Of a DNA stretch of 64,000 nucleotides, positions 2-63,813 are shown piece by piece. Position 1 is the first letter of the stretch; each line of letters starts with the position of its first letter. The DNA comes from Escherichia phage phiWec181. Below the pieces are notes generated by a model that searched no databases, was not told the DNA's origin, and saw only the letters and a program-made list of their open reading frames with translations. Position numbers and translations under genes: made by a program. Location: sequence record LC739534.1. One strand, written 5' to 3'.

Positions 2-844
2 CTAAGCATGACGGATTTGGCAAACGAAGCACAGGTCAAAAGTTTGGTGGTAGAATGCAACCCTGATTTCATTATTCACTTAGCGGCAGAGAGTCATGTG
101 GACAACTCTATCAAAAATCCACGAGCTTTCATCGACTCCAATATCATCGGTACATATAATTTACTGGAAGCTGCGAGACTACTCCCAAGGAATAAGCTGA
201 AGATGTTTGTACACGTCTCCACAGACGAAGTGTACGGCGATATGGCAGACTCTGGCGCTCCCTTTACCGAAGAGACAGCATATACTCCTTCAAGCCCGTA
301 CAGCGCGTCCAAGGCGGCTTCTGATCATCTTGTGAAAGCTTGGCACCGTACTTATGACTTGCCTGTAGTGATAACTAATTGCTCCAATAATTTTGGACCT
401 TACCAATACCCTGAAAAATTGATTCCAAAAGTAATCACAAGCATCTTGACGAACAAAGAAATCCCAGTGTATGGTAAAGGTGATCAGGTACGAGACTGGC
501 TTTTTGTTGAGGACCATGCACGAGCTATTCTTCAGGTAGCTTCTGGCGGCGAACCTGGACAAACTTACAACGTAGGTACACGTAATCCTAAAACCAATAT
601 GGAGATCATCTATATGATTTGTGATTACATGGATGCCGTACACCCGCAAAGTGGAACCTACCCCTCTTCAAGTTTAATAACTTTTGTTGAAGATCGTAAA
701 GGACATGACTTGCATTATGAAATCAACCCTGCTAAGATTGAATCTGAACTGGGTTGGAGTGCAAACTCCACATTTGAACAAGACCTTTACTCTACGATAG
801 AGTGGTATTTAAACAACCCTCAATGGTGGAGAGAAAAGATTTAA
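2..844 (+). CDS. rfbB: dTDP-glucose 4,6-dehydratase (RmlB/RfbB), 5'-truncated at window edge
   Basis: Translation has HLAAESHVD and [13 protein letters not shown] (YxxxK region) typical of RmlB; N-terminal Rossmann part lies upstream of window. Confidence 0.85.
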
Positions 845-852
845 GGAGGGTT

Positions 853-1731
853 ATGAAAGGTATTATTTTGGCTGGAGGAAGTGGAACCCGCCTACATCCA
901 GTAACACGCAGTGTGAGCAAGCAATTGCTCCCTGTGTATGACAAACCTATGATTTATTATCCTTTATCAGTCTTGATGTTGGCAGATATTAAGGATATCT
1001 TAATCATCACAACCCCAGGCGATCAGGAAGATTTTGAGTATCTTCTTGGAGATGGATCTATGTTTGGGATAAAGATCACTTACGCAATGCAGTCTGAACC
1101 ACGAGGTCTTGCAGATGCTTTCATCATTGGTAAAGATTTCATTGGGGAAGATTCTGTTGCCCTTATTTTAGGGGATAACTTGTTCTTCGGACAAAGTTTC
1201 GGAAAACTTCTTATCCAAGCCAGCGAAATGGTGGATGTTTGGGGTGGAGCTTGTATCTTCGGGTATCTGGTGAAAGATCCTGAACGATTCGGTGTTGTTG
1301 AGTTTGGAAGTAATCGCCAAGCTATCTCTATTGAAGAGAAACCGGAACATCCTAAATCAGACTATGCTGTCACGGGTTTGTATTTCTATGACAACTCTGT
1401 TGTTCAACGTGCATTGGAAGTAACCCCTTCCGAGCGTGGAGAACTGGAGATCACAGATATCAATCGCAGCTACCTCGAAGACAGGAAGTTACAAGTTGAA
1501 GTTCTTGGAAGAGGATTCACTTGGTTGGATACAGGGACACACGCCAGTCTAATGGAAGCAGGTCAATTCGTGCAGACTATTGAGAACTGCCAAGGATTGA
1601 AGATTGCGTGCCTGGAAGAGATCGCTTTCAAAAAAGGGTGGATTTCTTTAGAGACTTTGGTGTATCATGGCAACTCATTGAAGAAAACAGAGTACGGGCA
1701 ATATTTGTTAAAATTAGCGGAGGGTAAATGA
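853..1731 (+). CDS. rfbA: glucose-1-phosphate thymidylyltransferase (RmlA/RfbA)
   Basis: N-terminal [12 protein letters not shown] sugar-nucleotidyltransferase motif; SD AAGGAGG upstream of ATG 853. Confidence 0.9.
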
Positions 1732-2288
1732 AAATAAAAGAATTAAGTATTCCTGGTCTGGTTGTCTTTAAACCTCAAGTTTACAAAGATGATCGTGGTT
1801 ACTTCACGGAGACGTTTAACGAGAAGATTTACGAAGAGGTTATTGGCAAACAAACGTTTGTTCAGGATAACCATTCATTCTCTACTTTAGGTGTTCTTCG
1901 CGGAATGCACTTTCAAGTAAACAATCCGCAAGGTAAGCTTGTACGTTGCACACGAGGTGAAGTTTTTGACGTGGCTGTAGATCTTCGTGAAGGTAGTCCA
2001 ACCTTCGGACAATGGGAAGGTGTGATTCTTAGTGGGCGTAACAATAAACAGTTTTGGATTCCACCTGGCTTTGCACATGGTTTTGTTGTAACCTCTTATG
2101 AAGCCAACTTTGAATACAAGTGCACCAACTACTACGATCCGGCATCTGAACGTAGTTTGTTGTGGAACGATCCTACTGTGAATATTGATTGGGGTTTTGA
2201 TATGATTTTCAATGATGAGAATTTTGTACCTATCATTTCGGAAAAGGATGCACAAGCTAAAACACTGAAGGAGCTTATGGAATCATGA
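1728..2288 (+). CDS. rfbC: dTDP-4-dehydrorhamnose 3,5-epimerase (RmlC/RfbC)
   Basis: RmlC-like cupin sequence ([22 protein letters not shown]); start overlaps rfbA stop (ATGA). Confidence 0.85.
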
Positions 2289-3127
2289 AAACATATTTAG
2301 TATTGGGTGGTAATGGTCAATTAGGTCAGGCACTGCGTAAAGTGGTGCCGGAGAATGTGACTTTGGTGTATCCAGAAAAGCGTGTAGATATCACCAGTTT
2401 CGAAGCTGTAAGAAAAGCGATCATGGACACCCCAAATATTAACGGTGTTATCAACTGTGCGGCATACACTGCGGTGGACAAAGCAGAGACAGATGTTGAT
2501 GCAGCTATGGCTGTAAATTTACACGGGGCAGCTAATATTGCTGCCTTCTGTAAGGCTTGGGATATTGACATGGTGCATATTTCTACTGACTATGTGTTCA
2601 ACAGCGATAAACCGTTGTTCCATCAGGATGAACCCAACCCTATCAATGTTTACGGGTTATCTAAAAGTTTGGGTGAAGCTGCTGTTCGTGGTATCTACCA
2701 TAAAGCTTTTATTATCCGCACGGCTTCTGTGTATAGCGAGTTTGGTAACAACTTCCTGAAGACTATGGTGTCTCGTTACAACGATGGTCAAAGAGACTTC
2801 TCGGTAGTTGCAGATCAAACATCTCGACCAACTTATGCCCCAGATTTGGCTAAGATGATTTTCCAAGTGTTGGAAACAGGATATAACACCCGTACTTTGC
2901 ATTACGCTGGGAACATCACTGTTTCGTGGCACCAGTTCGCAAAAATGATATTGACACGTATGCCTGAATCTGTTATTATACACCCGACCTCTGCTGCAAC
3001 CTATAATTCGGCAGCGATGCGACCAGCAAAGTCTATACTAATTACGTCTGGTTGGAACGAACCTTCAAGCGTCGGACAAGGTATTGAAGAATCTTTAGCA
3101 GTATTACTTAATAAGGAGAGAGCATGA
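2285..3127 (+). CDS. rfbD: dTDP-4-dehydrorhamnose reductase (RmlD/RfbD)
   Basis: N-terminal LGGNGQLGQAL dinucleotide-binding motif, RmlD-like length; ATGA overlap with rfbC. Confidence 0.8.
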   Translation: MKTYLVLGGNGQLGQALRKVVPENVTLVYPEKRVDITSFEAVRKAIMDTPNINGVINCAAYTAVDKAETDVDAAMAVNLHGAANIAAFCKAWDIDMVHISTDYVFNSDKPLFHQDEPNPINVYGLSKSLGEAAVRGIYHKAFIIRTASVYSEFGNNFLKTMVSRYNDGQRDFSVVADQTSRPTYAPDLAKMIFQVLETGYNTRTLHYAGNITVSWHQFAKMILTRMPESVIIHPTSAATYNSAAMRPAKSILITSGWNEPSSVGQGIEESLAVLLNKERA

Positions 3128-3384
3128 ATTTTGTAATTTACGGCAAACCAAATTGCCAGTTCTGTGAAATGTCCAAACAACTCTTAACTATGCGTGAAAA
3201 AGAGTTTGAATATCTGACATTAGATCAGGACTATGATTTTGAAGTGATGACTCAAGCAGTGATCGCAGCAACAGGAATTGCACCTCGCACCTTCCCGCAG
3301 ATTTTTGTGGAAGAGCTTGGAGCAGTAACCCACGTAGGCGGTTTTACCGAACTGCGTGATTTCATGGCTCAAATTGCGGAGTAA
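3124..3384 (+). CDS. glutaredoxin/thioredoxin-like protein (NrdC/NrdH-like)
   Basis: 86 aa with CQFC redox motif near N-terminus, same layout as T4 NrdC thioredoxin; ATGA overlap with rfbD. Confidence 0.65.
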   Translation: MNFVIYGKPNCQFCEMSKQLLTMREKEFEYLTLDQDYDFEVMTQAVIAATGIAPRTFPQIFVEELGAVTHVGGFTELRDFMAQIAE

Positions 3385-3547: not shown

Positions 3548-4051
3548 ATGGCTAAAAAAGTAGTAGATGAGTTTGACATGTTGGCTGTTGATGAAGGACT
3601 GAAGCTGACTGTTTACCCAGACACCTTGGGATATTGGACAGTCGGCATTGGACACCTCTTAACTAAAAAGAAAGATAAGGCGGAAGCTATTCGTATTCTG
3701 GATGCTCTTGTTGGTCGCAAGACTAACGGAGTTATCACAGAGAAAGAAGCCCGTGCTATCTTTGCTGACGATGTTGAAAAGGCGAAAAAACAGATTAAAA
3801 ACAGTTCCATTCTTGCCCCAATTTATGATAAGGTGAGTGAAACCCGTAAACTGGCAATCATCAATATGGTGTTCCAGTTGGGGTTAACAGGAACGGAAGG
3901 CTTTAAAAATAGCTTGACTTTAATCAGTAATTCGTACTATACTCAAGCTGGTAAAAACATGAGAGCCAGTAAATGGTACTCTCAAACGCCAAACCGTGCA
4001 GAACGAGTAATCAAGGTTCTAACATCTGGGACTCTTGATTCTTACAACTAA
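3548..4051 (+). CDS. e: T4-type lysozyme (endolysin, GH24 muramidase)
   Basis: MLAVDEGLKLTVYPDTLGYWTVGIGHLLTK...ITEKEA...INMVFQLG...SKWYSQTPNRAERVI aligns along whole length with T4 lysozyme. Confidence 0.9.
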   Translation: MAKKVVDEFDMLAVDEGLKLTVYPDTLGYWTVGIGHLLTKKKDKAEAIRILDALVGRKTNGVITEKEARAIFADDVEKAKKQIKNSSILAPIYDKVSETRKLAIINMVFQLGLTGTEGFKNSLTLISNSYYTQAGKNMRASKWYSQTPNRAERVIKVLTSGTLDSYN

Positions 4052-4088
4052 CAAAGGGGCGCAAGCCCCTTCTATAAGGAGTGCTACT

Positions 4089-4844
4089 ATGGGAAAAACA
4101 GCTACCGCTAAATCACCGCGCCAGAAGTTAGCTTCTAATGCGAAAGTAGAAAGTCGTTATGCTGCAAAAGCAGTTGGAAATGATGACTATCGTTTAGATG
4201 GGTTTTCACCAGAAGGAGATCAGCAGCAAATCGTTCAAAGTATGATCTGGAATGATCTTACAGTCGTAAATGCTCCAGCAGGGACAGGCAAGACTTCCGT
4301 GACTTTATGGAAAGCTTTGCAGATGCTTCGAGCAGGAGATTTCCGTAAGCTTCTTTTTATTAAAAACCCGACTGAAGTTGGTGATGATCAGATTGGTTTC
4401 CTTTCAGGAGATAAAACTGATAAACTGGCGGCGCACTACGAATCAACCAAACGAATCTTCCAGCAGTTTATGACTGCAAACAAATTAGAGAATGATATTG
4501 GTTCCGGTAAGATTGAACTTAATATCCCGAACTACCTACTGGGTGCTACCCTGGACAACACTATTGTGATCATTGATGAAGCACAGCTTATGTCTCCAGA
4601 AACATTAAAACTTCTGGTAGAGCGTGCAGGGATCAACACTCATGTTGTTGTTCTTGGAGATGTTCGTCAAACCTACGCTATCAAGAAGCGTGCAAACGGT
4701 TTGAAAGATCTTCTTGACAAAGTTGCCCCTGAAGGTGAAGATGGTGTTCGTGTCCCTCTGGTAGACTTTATCGGTTATGTGCAGTTAACCACAGATGACA
4801 ACAAACGATCTCGTTTGTCTAAGTTCATCACGGAAATTTATTAA
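4089..4844 (+). CDS. phoH: PhoH-like ATPase
   Basis: Walker A NAPAGTGKT and Walker B-like VIIDEAQ; SD AAGGAG upstream of ATG 4089. Confidence 0.8.
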   Translation: MGKTATAKSPRQKLASNAKVESRYAAKAVGNDDYRLDGFSPEGDQQQIVQSMIWNDLTVVNAPAGTGKTSVTLWKALQMLRAGDFRKLLFIKNPTEVGDDQIGFLSGDKTDKLAAHYESTKRIFQQFMTANKLENDIGSGKIELNIPNYLLGATLDNTIVIIDEAQLMSPETLKLLVERAGINTHVVVLGDVRQTYAIKKRANGLKDLLDKVAPEGEDGVRVPLVDFIGYVQLTTDDNKRSRLSKFITEIY

Positions 4845-6112: not shown

Positions 6113-6550
6113 ATGTTGAACGTTCCTGTTAAATTCGTCGATAGCTGTGTTAATGCTTACCAACAAACTTGTAAACGTGCCTCAAACTGTTTGCAGTCTT
6201 TGATTCAAACGCGGTACGTGATCCAAAAGAAAAGAAAGTGGTTTGGTAAGGATTCTTATAGTGTTAATGCGTTTGGGGAGTATCAACTCCAATATGACGA
6301 TAACATGCAGCACATCTTAGAGTTTTTACTGATAAAAGATAAAATCTCCCCTGCGGATTACCAGTTACTTAAATTCTACGATCAGAGTTTGTCTATTGAG
6401 GAAGTTATTGAAGATATCCTTTCTCGTAAGACAGATAAGAACACTATTGGTATTACAAACTTAGAGATGCAATTGCTTAATGAGATCTTTTTGTTTGTGG
6501 AAGATGAGTCTGTAACTAAGGAGGAGCTTTTAAATGGCTTTAAGCTATGA
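6113..6550 (+). CDS. hypothetical protein (145 aa)
   Basis: ORF with SD GAGGAG upstream. Confidence 0.5.
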   Translation: MLNVPVKFVDSCVNAYQQTCKRASNCLQSLIQTRYVIQKKRKWFGKDSYSVNAFGEYQLQYDDNMQHILEFLLIKDKISPADYQLLKFYDQSLSIEEVIEDILSRKTDKNTIGITNLEMQLLNEIFLFVEDESVTKEELLNGFKL

Positions 6551-7043
6551 TCGTCCAGAGTCCGATTACTATCCGACTCCGCAAAAAGCGATTAACTCGT
6601 TATTTAGCATTATTGATTTTAAAAATTTGAAAGAGGAAGGATTTACATTTGCAGAACCGTGTAAAGGACAAGCAGCGGCTATTTACCGTCACTTCCCTGA
6701 AGGTTCTCAGTATTGTGAGCTTGAAGAAGGTAAAGATTATTTTAGTCACGTATGGGAAAATCGTCCCGACATTATAATCACTAACCCCCCGTTCAAGCTG
6801 GCATTAGAGTTCTTGGAAAAGAGCTTGAAAGAAGCAGACGTATCAGTCTACCTGCTTCGCTTGGGATTCCTTGAGTCAAAGAAACGTCGAGCGTTTCATC
6901 AAGAAAACCCACCTACGAATTTGATTGTACTCTCCGAACGTCCTTCGTTCGTAGCGGGTGGAACAGATAAGACAGCGTATGCTTGGTACGTATACGATCC
7001 AAAACAAATTTTGGGTCTAACTCAACCATTTTATTTCGTTTAA
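6534..7043 (+). CDS. putative DNA N6-adenine methyltransferase (small, NPPF motif)
   Basis: IITNPPF (motif IV (D/N)PP(F/Y)) preceded by FAEPCKG AdoMet-binding-like motif and DYYPTP. Confidence 0.5.
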   Translation: MALSYDRPESDYYPTPQKAINSLFSIIDFKNLKEEGFTFAEPCKGQAAAIYRHFPEGSQYCELEEGKDYFSHVWENRPDIIITNPPFKLALEFLEKSLKEADVSVYLLRLGFLESKKRRAFHQENPPTNLIVLSERPSFVAGGTDKTAYAWYVYDPKQILGLTQPFYFV

Positions 7044-9410: not shown

Positions 9411-9703
9411 TGTATAAAATTACAATCGTAGAATCTGTGGGTGAGATTCGTAAAGAAATTATTCTGGAGACGGAAGATCTGGAACTGGTACGTGAAATCA
9501 TAATTGGTAAGAATGTAGACAAGGTGGAGTCGGACGCACCCAACCTGATGATCGATGACCAATATGCAGAATTTCGTCGTATTTTTGAGGAAGAAAGGAA
9601 GAAGTGGGGCAAAGAACCAAACGTTTTTCGTCCTTATAATCCGTATCCTTCTGGTGATCCGTGGATCATGACTAACAGAAACCCGTTTGAAATAACCTGT
9701 TGA
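9410..9703 (+). CDS. hypothetical protein (97 aa)
   Basis: ORF overlapping previous stop (TAATG). Confidence 0.45.
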   Translation: MYKITIVESVGEIRKEIILETEDLELVREIIIGKNVDKVESDAPNLMIDDQYAEFRRIFEEERKKWGKEPNVFRPYNPYPSGDPWIMTNRNPFEITC

Positions 9704-13408: not shown

Positions 13409-13807
13409 ATGGGTTGGTGTGATCAGTCACAAAGTTACTTCAAAGTGACACATGTGGATCTCAACAAGGCAAGAGTGAAGCTGTTGAGTATTGAAAAAGA
13501 AACAGCAGCTATTGACAAACGCCTCCGAGAGAGTAAAGTGGTAATCACTTCTTGGTTCGGACTGAAACGTAAAGTCCTCACGCAGCGAGAGCATGTAATT
13601 AAAAATATGCATGGTTGGGCTTGGTTCCACGACATGGCAAAACACCTGGGGTACATTTCTACTGAAGAACACGACCTCTTGGAGCTACGTTATCGCCTTC
13701 CAGATGTAGAAGATTTAGATTTGTGGATCAGTTCCGAACAAATCTTCTTAACCGAGAGCGATTGGAAGAAAGTCAATATTTGTCTTAAATGGAGGGAGAA
13801 TGAGTAA
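13409..13807 (+). CDS. hypothetical protein (132 aa)
   Basis: ORF with SD GAAGGAGG upstream. Confidence 0.45.
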   Translation: MGWCDQSQSYFKVTHVDLNKARVKLLSIEKETAAIDKRLRESKVVITSWFGLKRKVLTQREHVIKNMHGWAWFHDMAKHLGYISTEEHDLLELRYRLPDVEDLDLWISSEQIFLTESDWKKVNICLKWRENE

Positions 13808-14483
13808 AGTAGTTTTATCAACATTTGATGGATCTGGGATCATGGTACTTCGTTACGCAGAAGCGGGACATAAATGCTATTGTGTAAATGCTGACGAAGG
13901 TGATCACGGGGCTTATGAAGTTCGCATGGAACATCCTAACATCACTTACGTGAACGCATGGATTGATTCCAACTTCAACCCTGAAGATTACGGTATTCCT
14001 AAGCCAGATATTATCTTTGGCTTCCCTCCATGTACCATGCTTGCTGGTTGCGGTAGTAAGCACGAACGTAGCGCAGAAGAGTTGGAAGAAGCTTTGGCTA
14101 ACATTCGTATCGTGGAAGCTTTAGGAAATAAATACAACGTTCCGTGGATGATTGAGAATCCGGTGGGTAAACTGTCAACATTGTGGCGTAAACCGGATTT
14201 CTATTTCGATCCTTACGAATATGGCGGATATCTGTTTGATGAAGAAGGCAGCTTCCACCCTAAAATGCCTACCCGTGACGGTTACACAAAGAAAACCTGT
14301 ATTTGGCATGGCAATGGTTTTGTTAAGCCTGTGAAGAAGCCTGTGGAACATATTGGTTGCTTCTGGGGCTGGAAAAGTTTAGGCGGAGCAAGTGCGAAAA
14401 CAAAGCAACTCCGATCGTTAACTGCTCGCGGTTTTGCTCGTGCTGTGTTTTTATCTAACAACCTTTTAGATAAGGAGGAATGA
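13800..14483 (+). CDS. compact C5-methyltransferase-fold protein (motifs I, IV, VI only)
   Basis: FDGSG (motif I), GFPPC (motif IV PC) and ENPVG (motif VI ENV) in canonical order, but only 227 aa with no room for a TRD or motifs VIII-X. Confidence 0.5.
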   Translation: MSKVVLSTFDGSGIMVLRYAEAGHKCYCVNADEGDHGAYEVRMEHPNITYVNAWIDSNFNPEDYGIPKPDIIFGFPPCTMLAGCGSKHERSAEELEEALANIRIVEALGNKYNVPWMIENPVGKLSTLWRKPDFYFDPYEYGGYLFDEEGSFHPKMPTRDGYTKKTCIWHGNGFVKPVKKPVEHIGCFWGWKSLGGASAKTKQLRSLTARGFARAVFLSNNLLDKEE

Positions 14484-15206: not shown

Positions 15207-15701
15207 ATGTTTCAAGTAGAAATTCATGTGCACAACAGTTGTTCAAATTGCGAAACTTGTGGTTACAATAGTTCAACCATGATCACTGTTAGCGGAGACT
15301 TAGGACATGCCAAGTTTGGCGAAGTCGCAAGCTGCTTCAGCGGAGAGGATGCAGATTGGCATGATATTGCTTTGTGGCTATGCGGAAGACTGAATGTAAA
15401 TTGTAAAGACTTCCCTGAACTGTTGAGCCGAAATCTTATTGATAGTCGGGAACAAGCCTACAATATTTATGCCGCTTCTGTTTATGTTGATCATAAATGG
15501 GTAGAAGATGAAGAAGCTGAACGTTTGCTGCGCCTCTACTACGAAGCAGAGGAAGCTTATGATAACTATTATAGCATGTCCAACATTCTACGCTTGTTTG
15601 CAGAGTTTGATATTTACTTTGAAGTGAGTTATTCTGAAGAGGAAGTGTATGATTTTGATGACGATGATTACGAGGAGGATGAAGAATGCCAAGACGATTA
15701 A
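15207..15701 (+). CDS. hypothetical acidic protein (164 aa) with N-terminal Cys cluster
   Basis: SD GGGAGG upstream of ATG 15207; CSNCETCG motif; highly acidic C-terminus. Confidence 0.5.
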   Translation: MFQVEIHVHNSCSNCETCGYNSSTMITVSGDLGHAKFGEVASCFSGEDADWHDIALWLCGRLNVNCKDFPELLSRNLIDSREQAYNIYAASVYVDHKWVEDEEAERLLRLYYEAEEAYDNYYSMSNILRLFAEFDIYFEVSYSEEEVYDFDDDDYEEDEECQDD

Positions 15702-16486
15702 TAGTGATCAGCGGTGCTGGTCTAAGCGCCGATAGCGGTGTACGTACTTTCCGCACTGATACAGATAGCGGGAAAGCTTTGTGGGATGAATACGACCTTT
15801 CTGAAGTGTGCGATATTTTCAATTTCCGTGCTGGCTACCAGCAAGAACAATGTGTTCCTGGCGCTGCTGGTGGATTAGATGCAGAGGGATACAACCTCTA
15901 CCGTAAAACTCACGACTTCTACAATAAACGTCGCGTAGAGATGGATAGTGTGTCTCCTAACGCTGCGCATTACCAGATCGCAGAGTGGTTCCAAGAGTAC
16001 GGCTGCGATCGTGTTATCAACATCACAACAAACGTAGATGATCTTCTGGAACAAGCAGGGGTTGTTCATGAAGATGTTCTGCATGTTCACGGCTTCCTGC
16101 CTGAAGTGATTGTAGACAATAGAATCATCAAGGATGTTGGTTATGCTGCTATTGATGTAGATGATTACAAGTATGTGAAGCCCAATGTAGTGTTCTTTGG
16201 GGAGACTGCCCCACTGTATAACGATATGTACCACATCTTAGACGGCTTGACGGCTCAAGATATGGTGGTTGTAGTGGGCTGCTCTAATCAAGTGATCAAC
16301 TTCAACTGGGATTTGTTCCCAGCCCTCAACATAGGAACAAAGATGGTCGTAGTTAATCCTGGGGTTAATTACGAAGAAACACTTCTCTATGAAGATCGTG
16401 GAGTTTTTGTTTACCGAGAAAAAGCTGCAACAGCCTTCAGTAATGAAGGTTTCATTAAAATGATCGAAGACCACTTAAACAAATAA
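15686..16486 (+). CDS. SIR2-family (sirtuin-like) NAD-dependent protein
   Basis: N-terminal VISGAGLSADSGVRTFR matches sirtuin GAGISxxSGIPxFR; HVHGF resembles the catalytic His region. Confidence 0.7.
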   Translation: MPRRLIVISGAGLSADSGVRTFRTDTDSGKALWDEYDLSEVCDIFNFRAGYQQEQCVPGAAGGLDAEGYNLYRKTHDFYNKRRVEMDSVSPNAAHYQIAEWFQEYGCDRVINITTNVDDLLEQAGVVHEDVLHVHGFLPEVIVDNRIIKDVGYAAIDVDDYKYVKPNVVFFGETAPLYNDMYHILDGLTAQDMVVVVGCSNQVINFNWDLFPALNIGTKMVVVNPGVNYEETLLYEDRGVFVYREKAATAFSNEGFIKMIEDHLNK

Positions 16487-42311: not shown

Positions 42312-42593
42312 TTATTTTTTCAAGCTTGACCACTCAAAACACGGCGGGATCTCGTTAAAACTTGCACCCTGTAAAGCACATAATTTTTTAGCAATAGCCG
42401 CCGTAACCTGGCGTTGTACGCGCGGATCTGCTACTGATTGGAGAAAGTAGGCGGCTTTATATGTGATCATGCTTTCGCCTGTTTCCTTGTTAACGTGGTG
42501 CACTATTTTAGCCTTATCATCTTTAACCAGGGTGTAACCGGATTCGATGGCCTTGATTGCAACGTCCAATGATATTTTCATGATTTGTCTCAT
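42312..42593 (-). CDS. hypothetical protein (93 aa)
   Basis: ATG only 7 nt after hairpin and without SD; possible short-leader translation. Confidence 0.45.
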   Translation of the reverse strand: MRQIMKISLDVAIKAIESGYTLVKDDKAKIVHHVNKETGESMITYKAAYFLQSVADPRVQRQVTAAIAKKLCALQGASFNEIPPCFEWSSLKK

Positions 42594-63454: not shown

Positions 63455-63813
63455 GAGAAACAATCGTAGATGTTGTTATTAATGGACAACGTTATGTACC
63501 TGTTATAGAGAAAGCTGAACCAGACGCTTTAGATGTTGTCTTTGAAGATGATGATCTTGGCACTGTTACTGTACGTGAATATTTCAGACGACTACTCTCT
63601 ACACTTTGGGAAGAAGAAGACAGTTTTAGTGGAAAACGACCTTTTGGTAACTCTTGCTGGCAGTTCGATTTGATTATCGGTTTGATCGATGCTGGCTACC
63701 TGGAGGGTAAAGTTTATCGTGACGAAGATGGAGGTATAGAAGATACCGACTATGATCGTGAAGAAGCAGATAAACTCATTCAAGGTCTAATTTCACGTAT
63801 GTGTTTGGGGTAA
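63451..63813 (+). CDS. hypothetical acidic protein (120 aa)
   Basis: SD AAAAAGGAGGAAAA upstream; ATGA overlap. Confidence 0.55.
   Translation: MRETIVDVVINGQRYVPVIEKAEPDALDVVFEDDDLGTVTVREYFRRLLSTLWEEEDSFSGKRPFGNSCWQFDLIIGLIDAGYLEGKVYRDEDGGIEDTDYDREEADKLIQGLISRMCLG

Follow-up and report, generated by a model that had tools for sequence, protein, structure and literature searches.

A predicted dTDP-L-rhamnose pathway in the ribonucleotide reductase operon of phiWec181-like Escherichia phages and four putative glycosyltransferases that may use its product

A stretch of 64,000 nucleotides (nt) from Escherichia phage phiWec181 (sequence record LC739534.1), here called the window, opens with the genes of a predicted dTDP-L-rhamnose pathway, rmlB, rmlA, rmlC, and rmlD, followed directly by a glutaredoxin-like gene (grx). 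We propose that, during infection, glucose-1-phosphate and dTTP would be converted into dTDP-L-rhamnose by the phage enzymes RmlA to RmlD, that the rml genes form a cassette within an operon for nucleotide supply (thyX, nrdA, nrdB, rmlBACD, and grx), and that dTDP-L-rhamnose would feed four putative glycosyltransferases encoded elsewhere in the genome (GT1 to GT4), yielding a rhamnose-containing glycan on the virion or another protein or on an envelope glycan, probably not on DNA. We infer the enzyme activities, the use of the donor, and the acceptor, and we give this explanation as a whole an even chance of being right. The first 3,500 bases of the window are 100% identical to the genomes of phages phiWec179 (LC739533.1, from position 42433) and phiWec186, and the window agrees base for base with LC739533.1 up to at least position 9,568, with 107 additional bases somewhere before window position 63675. 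LC739533.1 was used as a near-identical reference, rather than as the exact source, for the complete rmlB gene and for regions outside the window. The phiWec179 group consists of lytic myoviruses of approximately 150 kb that belong to the Stephanstirmvirinae and for which the new genus "Wecvirus" has been proposed (PMC12548472).

All five genes lie on the plus strand. The rmlB gene (rffG-like), which codes for dTDP-glucose 4,6-dehydratase, is represented by its 3' 280 codons (positions 2 to 844), its first 50 codons lying upstream of the window; the complete gene encodes 330 amino acids (aa) (LC739533.1, 42284 to 43276), and the window opens 149 nt into it. The truncated protein passed the NCBIfam equivalog model TIGR01181 (381.9 bits against a cut-off of 365.1; E = 2.1e-114), and the full RmlB matched PDB entry 1g1a (6e-110), with STDEVYGD and YSASK conserved. 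The glucose-1-phosphate thymidylyltransferase gene rmlA (853 to 1731) has an ATG at 853, and a GTG at 802 would give an in-frame upstream extension. Its product passed TIGR01207 (465.7 bits against 360.65; 4.5e-140) and matched PDB entry 4ho0 (2.5e-123), with GGSGTRL conserved. The dTDP-4-dehydrorhamnose 3,5-epimerase gene rmlC (1728 to 2288) encodes a protein that passed TIGR01221 (246.1 bits against 155.75; 1.8e-73) and matched PDB entry 2ixi (5.7e-62). RmlC aligned to 2ixi with the His of RGxHxQ, the Lys of QGKLVR, the Tyr of YK, and the motif WNDP retained; this set of His, Lys, Tyr, and Asp is regarded as catalytic in the cupin-fold epimerase RmlC. The dTDP-4-dehydrorhamnose reductase gene rmlD (2285 to 3127) encodes a protein that narrowly passed TIGR01214 (244 bits against 224.05; 1.6e-72) and aligned with PDB entry 3sc6 (1.4e-49) over GGNGQLG, STDYVF, and YGLSK. 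The motifs STDEVYG and YSASK in RmlB (an SDR protein, with the catalytic T-D-E and YxxxK), GGSGTRL in RmlA (the nucleotide-binding GxGTRL), and STDYVF and YGLSK in RmlD (the T and YxxxK of the 4-ketoreductase) are catalytic motifs as well. Each of the four proteins aligned with its solved counterpart over its length. Pfam agreed with NCBIfam on all four identities, and the four genes are predicted to encode a working phage RmlA-RmlB-RmlC-RmlD pathway.

The initial annotation had placed the four rml genes and grx here in this order, which the open reading frame (ORF) coordinates, the equivalog assignments, and a Pfam glutaredoxin match all bear out. It had also described the pathway as complete, which is true of the source genome but not of the window, where rmlB lacks its 5' end. 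The proposed translational coupling through ATGA overlaps was found at three junctions (rmlA/rmlC, rmlC/rmlD, and rmlD/grx) but not at the rmlB/rmlA junction, where a TAA stop codon is followed by an 8-nt spacer with AAGGAGG, a strong Shine-Dalgarno sequence, and then the ATG.

The glutaredoxin-fold redoxin encoded by grx (3124 to 3384) carries the site C11-Q-F-C14 and matched Pfam family PF00462 (41.8 bits against 22.9; 1.3e-10) and phrog_22, "thioredoxin domain," in the category of DNA, RNA, and nucleotide metabolism. It could not be placed in the named subfamilies GrxA, Grx3, and NrdH, for which all NCBIfam scores were under the cut-off (45.3 against 90 for TIGR02181 and 38.1 against 84 for PRK11200). 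Just upstream of the rml genes, the source genome carries thyX, nrdA, and nrdB. The Vequintavirus phage DrSchubert carries thyX, nrdA, nrdB, and grx without rml genes, and its grx begins 4 nt past nrdB; in phiWec179, phAPEC8, and EmilieFrey, the rml genes stand between nrdB and grx. Since nrdB and grx are directly adjacent in Vequintavirus, the rml cassette, together with three or four small ORFs, is an insertion between the two genes in the Stephanstirmvirinae. The grx family was found in 470 phage records, Vequintavirus among them, whereas RmlC was found in 169. This wider distribution, and the position of grx behind nrdB in phages without rml genes, contradict the earlier grouping of grx with the rhamnose genes in one unit. 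Redoxins of this type reduce class Ia ribonucleotide reductase, and grx is best read as the probable reductant of the phage ribonucleotide reductase, part of the nrdAB module and outside sugar synthesis. It resembles known redoxins of ribonucleotide reductase, such as Escherichia coli Grx1 and NrdH and T4 NrdC, in its small glutaredoxin fold, its CxxC site, and its being encoded with nrdAB, but it differs from them in scoring under the GrxA, Grx3, and NrdH cut-offs, in having the site CQFC, and in being split from nrdB by the rml cassette.

A sigma-70-like promoter match (TTGACA, 17 nt, and TATTAT, with TG upstream; 11 of 12 in the scan) lies on the plus strand at 2951 to 2979, in the 3' end of rmlD and 145 nt before grx. 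Such sites are no commoner in the region than in shuffled sequences (23 against 22.7), so the match is not evidence of function and serves as a lead only. Behind grx, amid nucleotide metabolism genes, lies a gene of the T4 lysozyme family (PF00959; 3548 to 4051), followed by a gene for a PhoH-like ATPase (4035 to 4844).

The order rmlB-rmlA-rmlC-rmlD-grx is common to phAPEC8 and the phi92-like BASEL phage EmilieFrey, and intact copies of the genes occur in three genera. Pairwise ratios of nonsynonymous to synonymous substitution rates (dN/dS) range from 0.03 to 0.27 for the rml genes where dS is unsaturated, which indicates that the Rml proteins are under purifying selection. This argues that the proteins function, be their product dTDP-L-rhamnose, as predicted, or, for example, dTDP-6-deoxy-L-talose. 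Together with the equivalog scores and the conserved motifs, this agrees with the earlier view that the pathway is intact. The cluster behaves as two submodules, a dispensable rmlBA and a retained rmlCD. RmlB and RmlA share 94% and 97% identity with those of phAPEC8, and RmlC and RmlD share 64% and 66%; the flanking NrdB, lysozyme, and PhoH share 86 to 89%. In phage ESCO37, rmlB and rmlA are cleanly gone, while rmlC, rmlD, and grx are kept (PMC10269720). Among Escherichia phage records, RmlA was found in 87 and RmlC in 105, approximately 18 records having RmlC but no RmlA. Of the 169 phage records with RmlC in all, 131 have it at an identity of at least 60%; rmlC and rmlD are kept in these approximately 131 records, which come from the three genera and from Klebsiella, Citrobacter, and Serratia relatives. 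The dN/dS ratios of rmlC and rmlD are 0.1 to 0.27 despite amino acid identities of 51 to 67%.

The supply of enzymes by the host may account for this split. Each of 5,426 complete E. coli genomes contains DNA resembling the rml cluster, with the best matches over rfbB, rfbA, rfbC, and rfbD. DNA resembling rmlC was found in 1,582 of the 5,426, a lower bound at approximately 65% identity. Every E. coli has rffG and rffH, which serve the synthesis of enterobacterial common antigen (ECA). Because rffG and rffH are present in all hosts and rmlC and rmlD in only some, the phage would need its own RmlC and RmlD to secure dTDP-rhamnose in any host, and its RmlB and RmlA would merely add to a flux already supplied by the host RffG and RffH; rmlB and rmlA have been lost repeatedly. 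The phage rml genes share approximately 64% nucleotide identity with those of E. coli across the 5,426 genomes, and the gene order is B-D-A-C in the host and B-A-C-D in the phage, so the phage genes are not a recent capture from E. coli. Compared with the bacterial pathways (rfbBDAC of E. coli and Salmonella, and rffG/rffH), the phage cluster has the same four enzyme families at the equivalog level, with their motifs kept. It is unlike them in that the phage RmlD is nearest to 3sc6 of Bacillus anthracis (1e-49) rather than to 1kbz of Salmonella (1e-25) and in that the genes lie in a nucleotide metabolism operon of a lytic phage.

The losses described above would also fit a different view, in which the rml genes have no connection to the glycosyltransferase cluster and are a leftover of auxiliary metabolism, of little benefit, that perhaps modulates the pools of dTTP and dTDP-sugars or supplies host pathways. 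The absence of rmlB and rmlA from ESCO37 and roughly 18 other Escherichia phage records, the insertion of the cassette into an older nrdB-grx arrangement, and the wide occurrence of glycosyltransferase homologs without nearby rml genes are all in line with it. However, the retention of rmlC and rmlD in approximately 131 records under purifying selection is unexpected for a neutral passenger, and we consider a leftover very unlikely.

As the initial annotation had observed, no glycosyltransferase is visible in the window: none was found among 24 ORFs of at least 180 aa scanned against Pfam or PHROGs or in the annotation of the homologous stretch of phage PsgM04F. The search elsewhere in the genome that it had recommended yielded four adjacent candidates, GT1 to GT4 (gene names, not to be confused with the glycosyltransferase families of the same number), at 125324 to 128464 of LC739533.1, outside the window and approximately 80 kb downstream of rmlD. 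The four genes, annotated as "hypothetical" in phiWec179, encode proteins of 187 aa (GT1), 227 aa (GT2), and approximately 315 aa (GT3 and GT4) and lie directly upstream of an HNH gene, a primase/helicase gene, and a DNA polymerase I gene. In PsgM04F, which has a pharokka-style annotation, four adjacent genes are labeled "glycosyltransferase." GT1 to GT4 matched PHROG glycosyltransferase families strongly (1e-102, 6e-74, 3e-138, and 4e-135) and Pfam weakly. GT2 is modeled with a GT-A fold, and GT3 and GT4 are GT-B paralogs. GT1 has an invariant DxD, and 4 of 22 homologs gave weak matches to the Pfam GT2 family. Sequence searches of the PDB with GT2, GT4, and the GT1 family profile returned chance matches only, and fold models were used instead. 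A link of GT1 to GT2 or GT4 was dropped after a profile-profile comparison showed none. Just upstream of the cluster, a module of the tellurite resistance type (TerC, TelA, vWA-TerF-like, and TerD; LC739533.1, approximately 116.8 to 124.6 kb) is followed by a cell wall hydrolase gene (PF07486), the second such gene counting the lysozyme gene of the window.

The glycosyltransferase cluster occurs in 133 phage records (106 from Escherichia phages), essentially the same set as the 131 records with RmlC of the lineage type (at least 60% identity). Neither the rml genes nor the glycosyltransferase cluster was found in approximately 108 Vequintavirus-type Escherichia phage records that carry grx. 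Because the same phage records hold both clusters, GT1 to GT4 are the most likely users of dTDP-rhamnose, mainly on the grounds of this co-distribution. The earlier suggestion that the phage uses dTDP-rhamnose as a glycosyl donor gains from the intact pathway and the candidate consumers, but of the three acceptors that it offered, phage DNA, the virion, and host surface polysaccharide, DNA is the least likely.

To seek independent evidence on the acceptor, GT-B homologs were retrieved from IMG/VR viral contigs, at least 533 in number and mostly on contigs of 30 to 50 kb, and the best 80 environmental phage loci were examined. A GT2-family neighbor was present at 31 of these best 80 loci and a GT1-family neighbor at 8. 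The immediate neighbors (n = 150) were enriched for XkdF prohead proteases (9), hexapeptide acyltransferases (13), S-adenosylmethionine (SAM) methyltransferases (several), and GT2 enzymes, and the wider neighbors included 10 to 12 terminase and 7 portal genes, as well as N6/N4 and C5 DNA methylases and Mom. On one 36-kb phage contig, a GT-A/GT-B pair lies immediately upstream of terS, terL, and the genes for portal and capsid, all in one orientation. The module is typically found at the border of DNA modification genes and the head-packaging operon, a position compatible with a virion or a DNA target, and the sugar-tailoring neighbors are more in keeping with a decorated glycan than with a modified base. 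A bacterial island with a GT4-family homolog had been considered as a three-gene parallel to GT1-GT2-GT3 and was dropped since its neighbors show no homology with GT1 or GT2.

Several observations weigh against a rhamnose pathway that feeds GT1 to GT4 and a target other than DNA. No rml gene was found within 10 kb of the GT-B homolog at any of the best 80 IMG/VR loci; in other phages, the glycosyltransferase module thus operates with no rml genes from the phage, and here too it may draw on other donors. The co-occurrence of the two clusters within one phage lineage may reflect shared ancestry, and they lie approximately 80 kb apart. The assignment of GT1 as a probable GT-A enzyme depends on PHROG labels, the DxD, and the weak Pfam GT2 matches. 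The only rhamnosyltransferase model matched by the glycosyltransferase proteins was TIGR01556, at a nonsignificant E value of 0.12. The head, decoration, and tail tube proteins, inspected for a hint of O-glycosylation, have no Ser/Thr-rich tails, which counts in particular against a virion target. Both clusters lie amid nucleotide and replication genes, as a DNA modification system would, and in other phages the glycosyltransferase family neighbors DNA methylases and Mom. GT2 weakly matched phrog_842, the T-even beta-glucosyl-hydroxymethylcytosine (HMC) alpha-glucosyltransferase family (3e-7), and the Pfam family TAGT (E = 0.002); the latter match, at 18.5 bits, is under the Pfam cut-off of 27.5 and covers the DxD region only.

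Glycosylation of DNA was the guess of Olsen et al. (2020; PMC7552041), who described the rml pathway in phages like phAPEC8 and phi92, and it was repeated elsewhere (PMC10844046). In its general form, dTDP-rhamnose would be put onto genome bases by the phage glycosyltransferases, perhaps sparsely or at limited motifs, as protection against host nucleases. The evidence makes this quite unlikely. The only thymidylate synthase homolog, labeled "thymidylate synthase" in the annotated relative, was considered as a hydroxymethylase and rejected, being of the ThyX type (PF02511, 9e-9; phrog_85; no match to ThyA in the PDB), and no dCMP or dUMP hydroxymethylase, TET/JBP dioxygenase, or C5 methylase was found in the Pfam and PHROG scans of the window ORFs, many small ORFs lying outside them, or in the annotated relative. 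According to Maffei et al. (2021; PMC8594841), who also noted the rml clusters, Justusliebigvirus (phi92-like BASEL) phages show themselves "exceptionally susceptible" when faced with restriction-modification systems, and these phages carry the same rml and glycosyltransferase genes.

The composition of the DNA points in the same direction. The tetranucleotide CTAG never occurs in the 64-kb window, for which shuffled sequences give 176 ± 11 copies, and it is likewise missing in 132.5 kb of the phiWec179-type genome and in 150 kb of PsgM04F. Among the 64 palindromic hexamers, 24 (e.g., CTGCAG, GGATCC, CAGCTG, and GGTACC) are absent from the 132.5 kb, for which base composition predicts approximately 500 occurrences, whereas only 2.2% of the nonpalindromic hexamers are absent. 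phAPEC8, ESCO37, EmilieFrey, and a Vequintavirus have 1.3 to 1.9 CTAG per kb; the first three, normal in CTAG, are yet 4- to 7-fold short of those hexamers. The total purge of CTAG is specific to the phiWec179/PsgM04F clade. The paper describing these phages does not mention it. Such avoidance of restriction sites is expected of DNA that is exposed to restriction rather than hypermodified.

The replication setting of the two clusters and the methylase and Mom neighbors in other phages do fit one special form of DNA modification, in which a rhamnose glycan is added without a hydroxymethyl-pyrimidine step, sparsely or at limited motifs, so that most sites stay cleavable. This would be a new type of modification, and we regard it as highly doubtful. 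The system resembles the glucosylation of T-even DNA in having phage glycosyltransferases amid replication genes and GT-B folds. It differs in that no GT protein gave a specific Pfam match to the T4 glucosyltransferase families, no hydroxymethylase was found, and relatives are sensitive to restriction. T4, moreover, takes its UDP-glucose from the host and has no sugar pathway of its own. T4 AGT and BGT are mid-ranked among the structural neighbors of the GT-B model. Separately, two candidate DNA methyltransferase genes were noted in the window, both without a Pfam match: one at 6534 to 7043 (169 aa) has an NPPF motif and is so labeled in relatives, and one at 13800 to 14483 (227 aa) matched phrog_757 (1e-82).

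With DNA the least likely acceptor, a phage protein comes first among the targets of the proposed GT1 to GT4 pathway. A rhamnose oligosaccharide might be built on the capsid, tail, or fiber, or on another phage protein, with the rml genes securing the donor in any host; we put this forward tentatively, as a possibility. The environmental GT-B/GT-A pairs often lie beside head morphogenesis or packaging genes and sugar-tailoring enzymes, and the structural neighbors of the models include protein O-glycosyltransferases and chlorovirus glycosyltransferases (GtfA, SdgB, ppGalNAc-T, PBCV-1 A64R, and B736L). In mycobacteriophages, glycosyltransferases of the phage add glycans to the virion, and the rhamnose pathways of mimivirus and chloroviruses serve capsid or fibril glycans. 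These virion glycan systems resemble the phage system in combining a nucleotide sugar pathway with several glycosyltransferases, those of chloroviruses being structural neighbors as well. However, GT1 to GT4 lie between the Ter and lysis-like genes and the primase and polymerase genes, far from the structural genes, so that, unlike in those systems, the genes are outside the structural module. In addition, mimivirus, chloroviruses, and mycobacteriophages use UDP-L-rhamnose or host donors. The literature that we searched contains no mention of glycosylation of Stephanstirmvirinae virions, and to our knowledge, none of the virion proteins in this phage group is known to be glycosylated.

A second conceivable target is the host envelope. 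GT1 to GT4 would then act on undecaprenyl-linked or lipopolysaccharide (LPS) core acceptors and alter LPS, O-antigen, or ECA, which might, for instance, prevent superinfection or keep progeny from adsorbing to debris. Rhamnose is a typical sugar of O-antigens and LPS cores, and the phages depend on the LPS core, as waaG and waaT mutants are resistant (PMC12548472). Among the top structural neighbors of GT4 are enzymes that act on lipid-linked glycans or LPS (the Campylobacter undecaprenyl diphosphate [Und-PP]-glycan N-acetylgalactosamine [GalNAc] transferase, WlaC, PimA, WaaG, and WbnH), and the PHROG category of the glycosyltransferases is "moron, auxiliary metabolic gene and host takeover." However, the annotated relative shows no phage gene for an initiating transferase, a flippase, a polymerase, or a ligase, and a lytic cycle leaves little time for rebuilding the outer leaflet, which makes envelope remodeling unlikely. 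The neighborhood statistics are mixed. We rank the candidate acceptors of the proposed GT1 to GT4 products in the order virion or other protein, envelope glycan, and DNA.

The first 3,500 bases of the window, shared without a difference with phiWec179 and phiWec186, are 95% identical to phiWec188 and phiWec190 and 94% identical to PsgM04F (a "Pseudomonas phage" by record name), and they share approximately 82% identity with members of Phapecoctavirus, e.g., phAPEC8. The clusters of phAPEC8 (Phapecoctavirus) and the phi92-like phages (Justusliebigvirus) are like those described here in the order rmlB-rmlA-rmlC-rmlD-grx after nrdAB and in a cluster of four glycosyltransferase genes by the primase and polymerase genes. 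The phiWec179/PsgM04F clade, to which the phage of the window belongs, is unlike phAPEC8 in its diverged RmlC and RmlD (64 to 66%) and in having no CTAG. Doubtful host labels were noted on several near-identical Stephanstirmvirinae records that otherwise look like coliphage genomes ("Campylobacter phage" for, e.g., MG065650 and MG065689, "Pseudomonas phage PsgM04F," and "Acinetobacter phage ABPW7"). The records of phiWec186 and phiWec179 differ in length by the same 107 bases that the window has in surplus between positions 9568 and 63675. A gene of the Sir2 family lies at 15686 to 16486. The sign of the GC skew changes at approximately 16, 38, and 58 kb of the window, which is consistent with blocks of small genes in opposing orientations. 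No tRNA genes were found in the 64-kb window; the tRNA block of the annotated relative sits elsewhere.

The presence of the pathway in this phage group, its setting among DNA metabolism genes, the idea of DNA glycosylation, and the contrary restriction data have been published previously (PMC7552041, PMC8594841, PMC10269720, and PMC10844046). No experimental work on the function of the rml or glycosyltransferase genes in this phage group was found in the literature. The present analysis adds the placement of grx in the ribonucleotide reductase module, the reading of the rml cassette as an insertion, the split into rmlBA and rmlCD, the four co-distributed putative glycosyltransferases, and the ranking of DNA as the least likely acceptor. 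More than 130 sequenced coliphages, several broad-host-range therapy candidates among them, keep a sugar pathway and four putative glycosyltransferases, and the pathway appears to be under selection. If the target is the virion, the system would bear on the immune recognition and stability of therapeutic phages, and if it is the envelope, the system would amount to surface conversion by a lytic phage.

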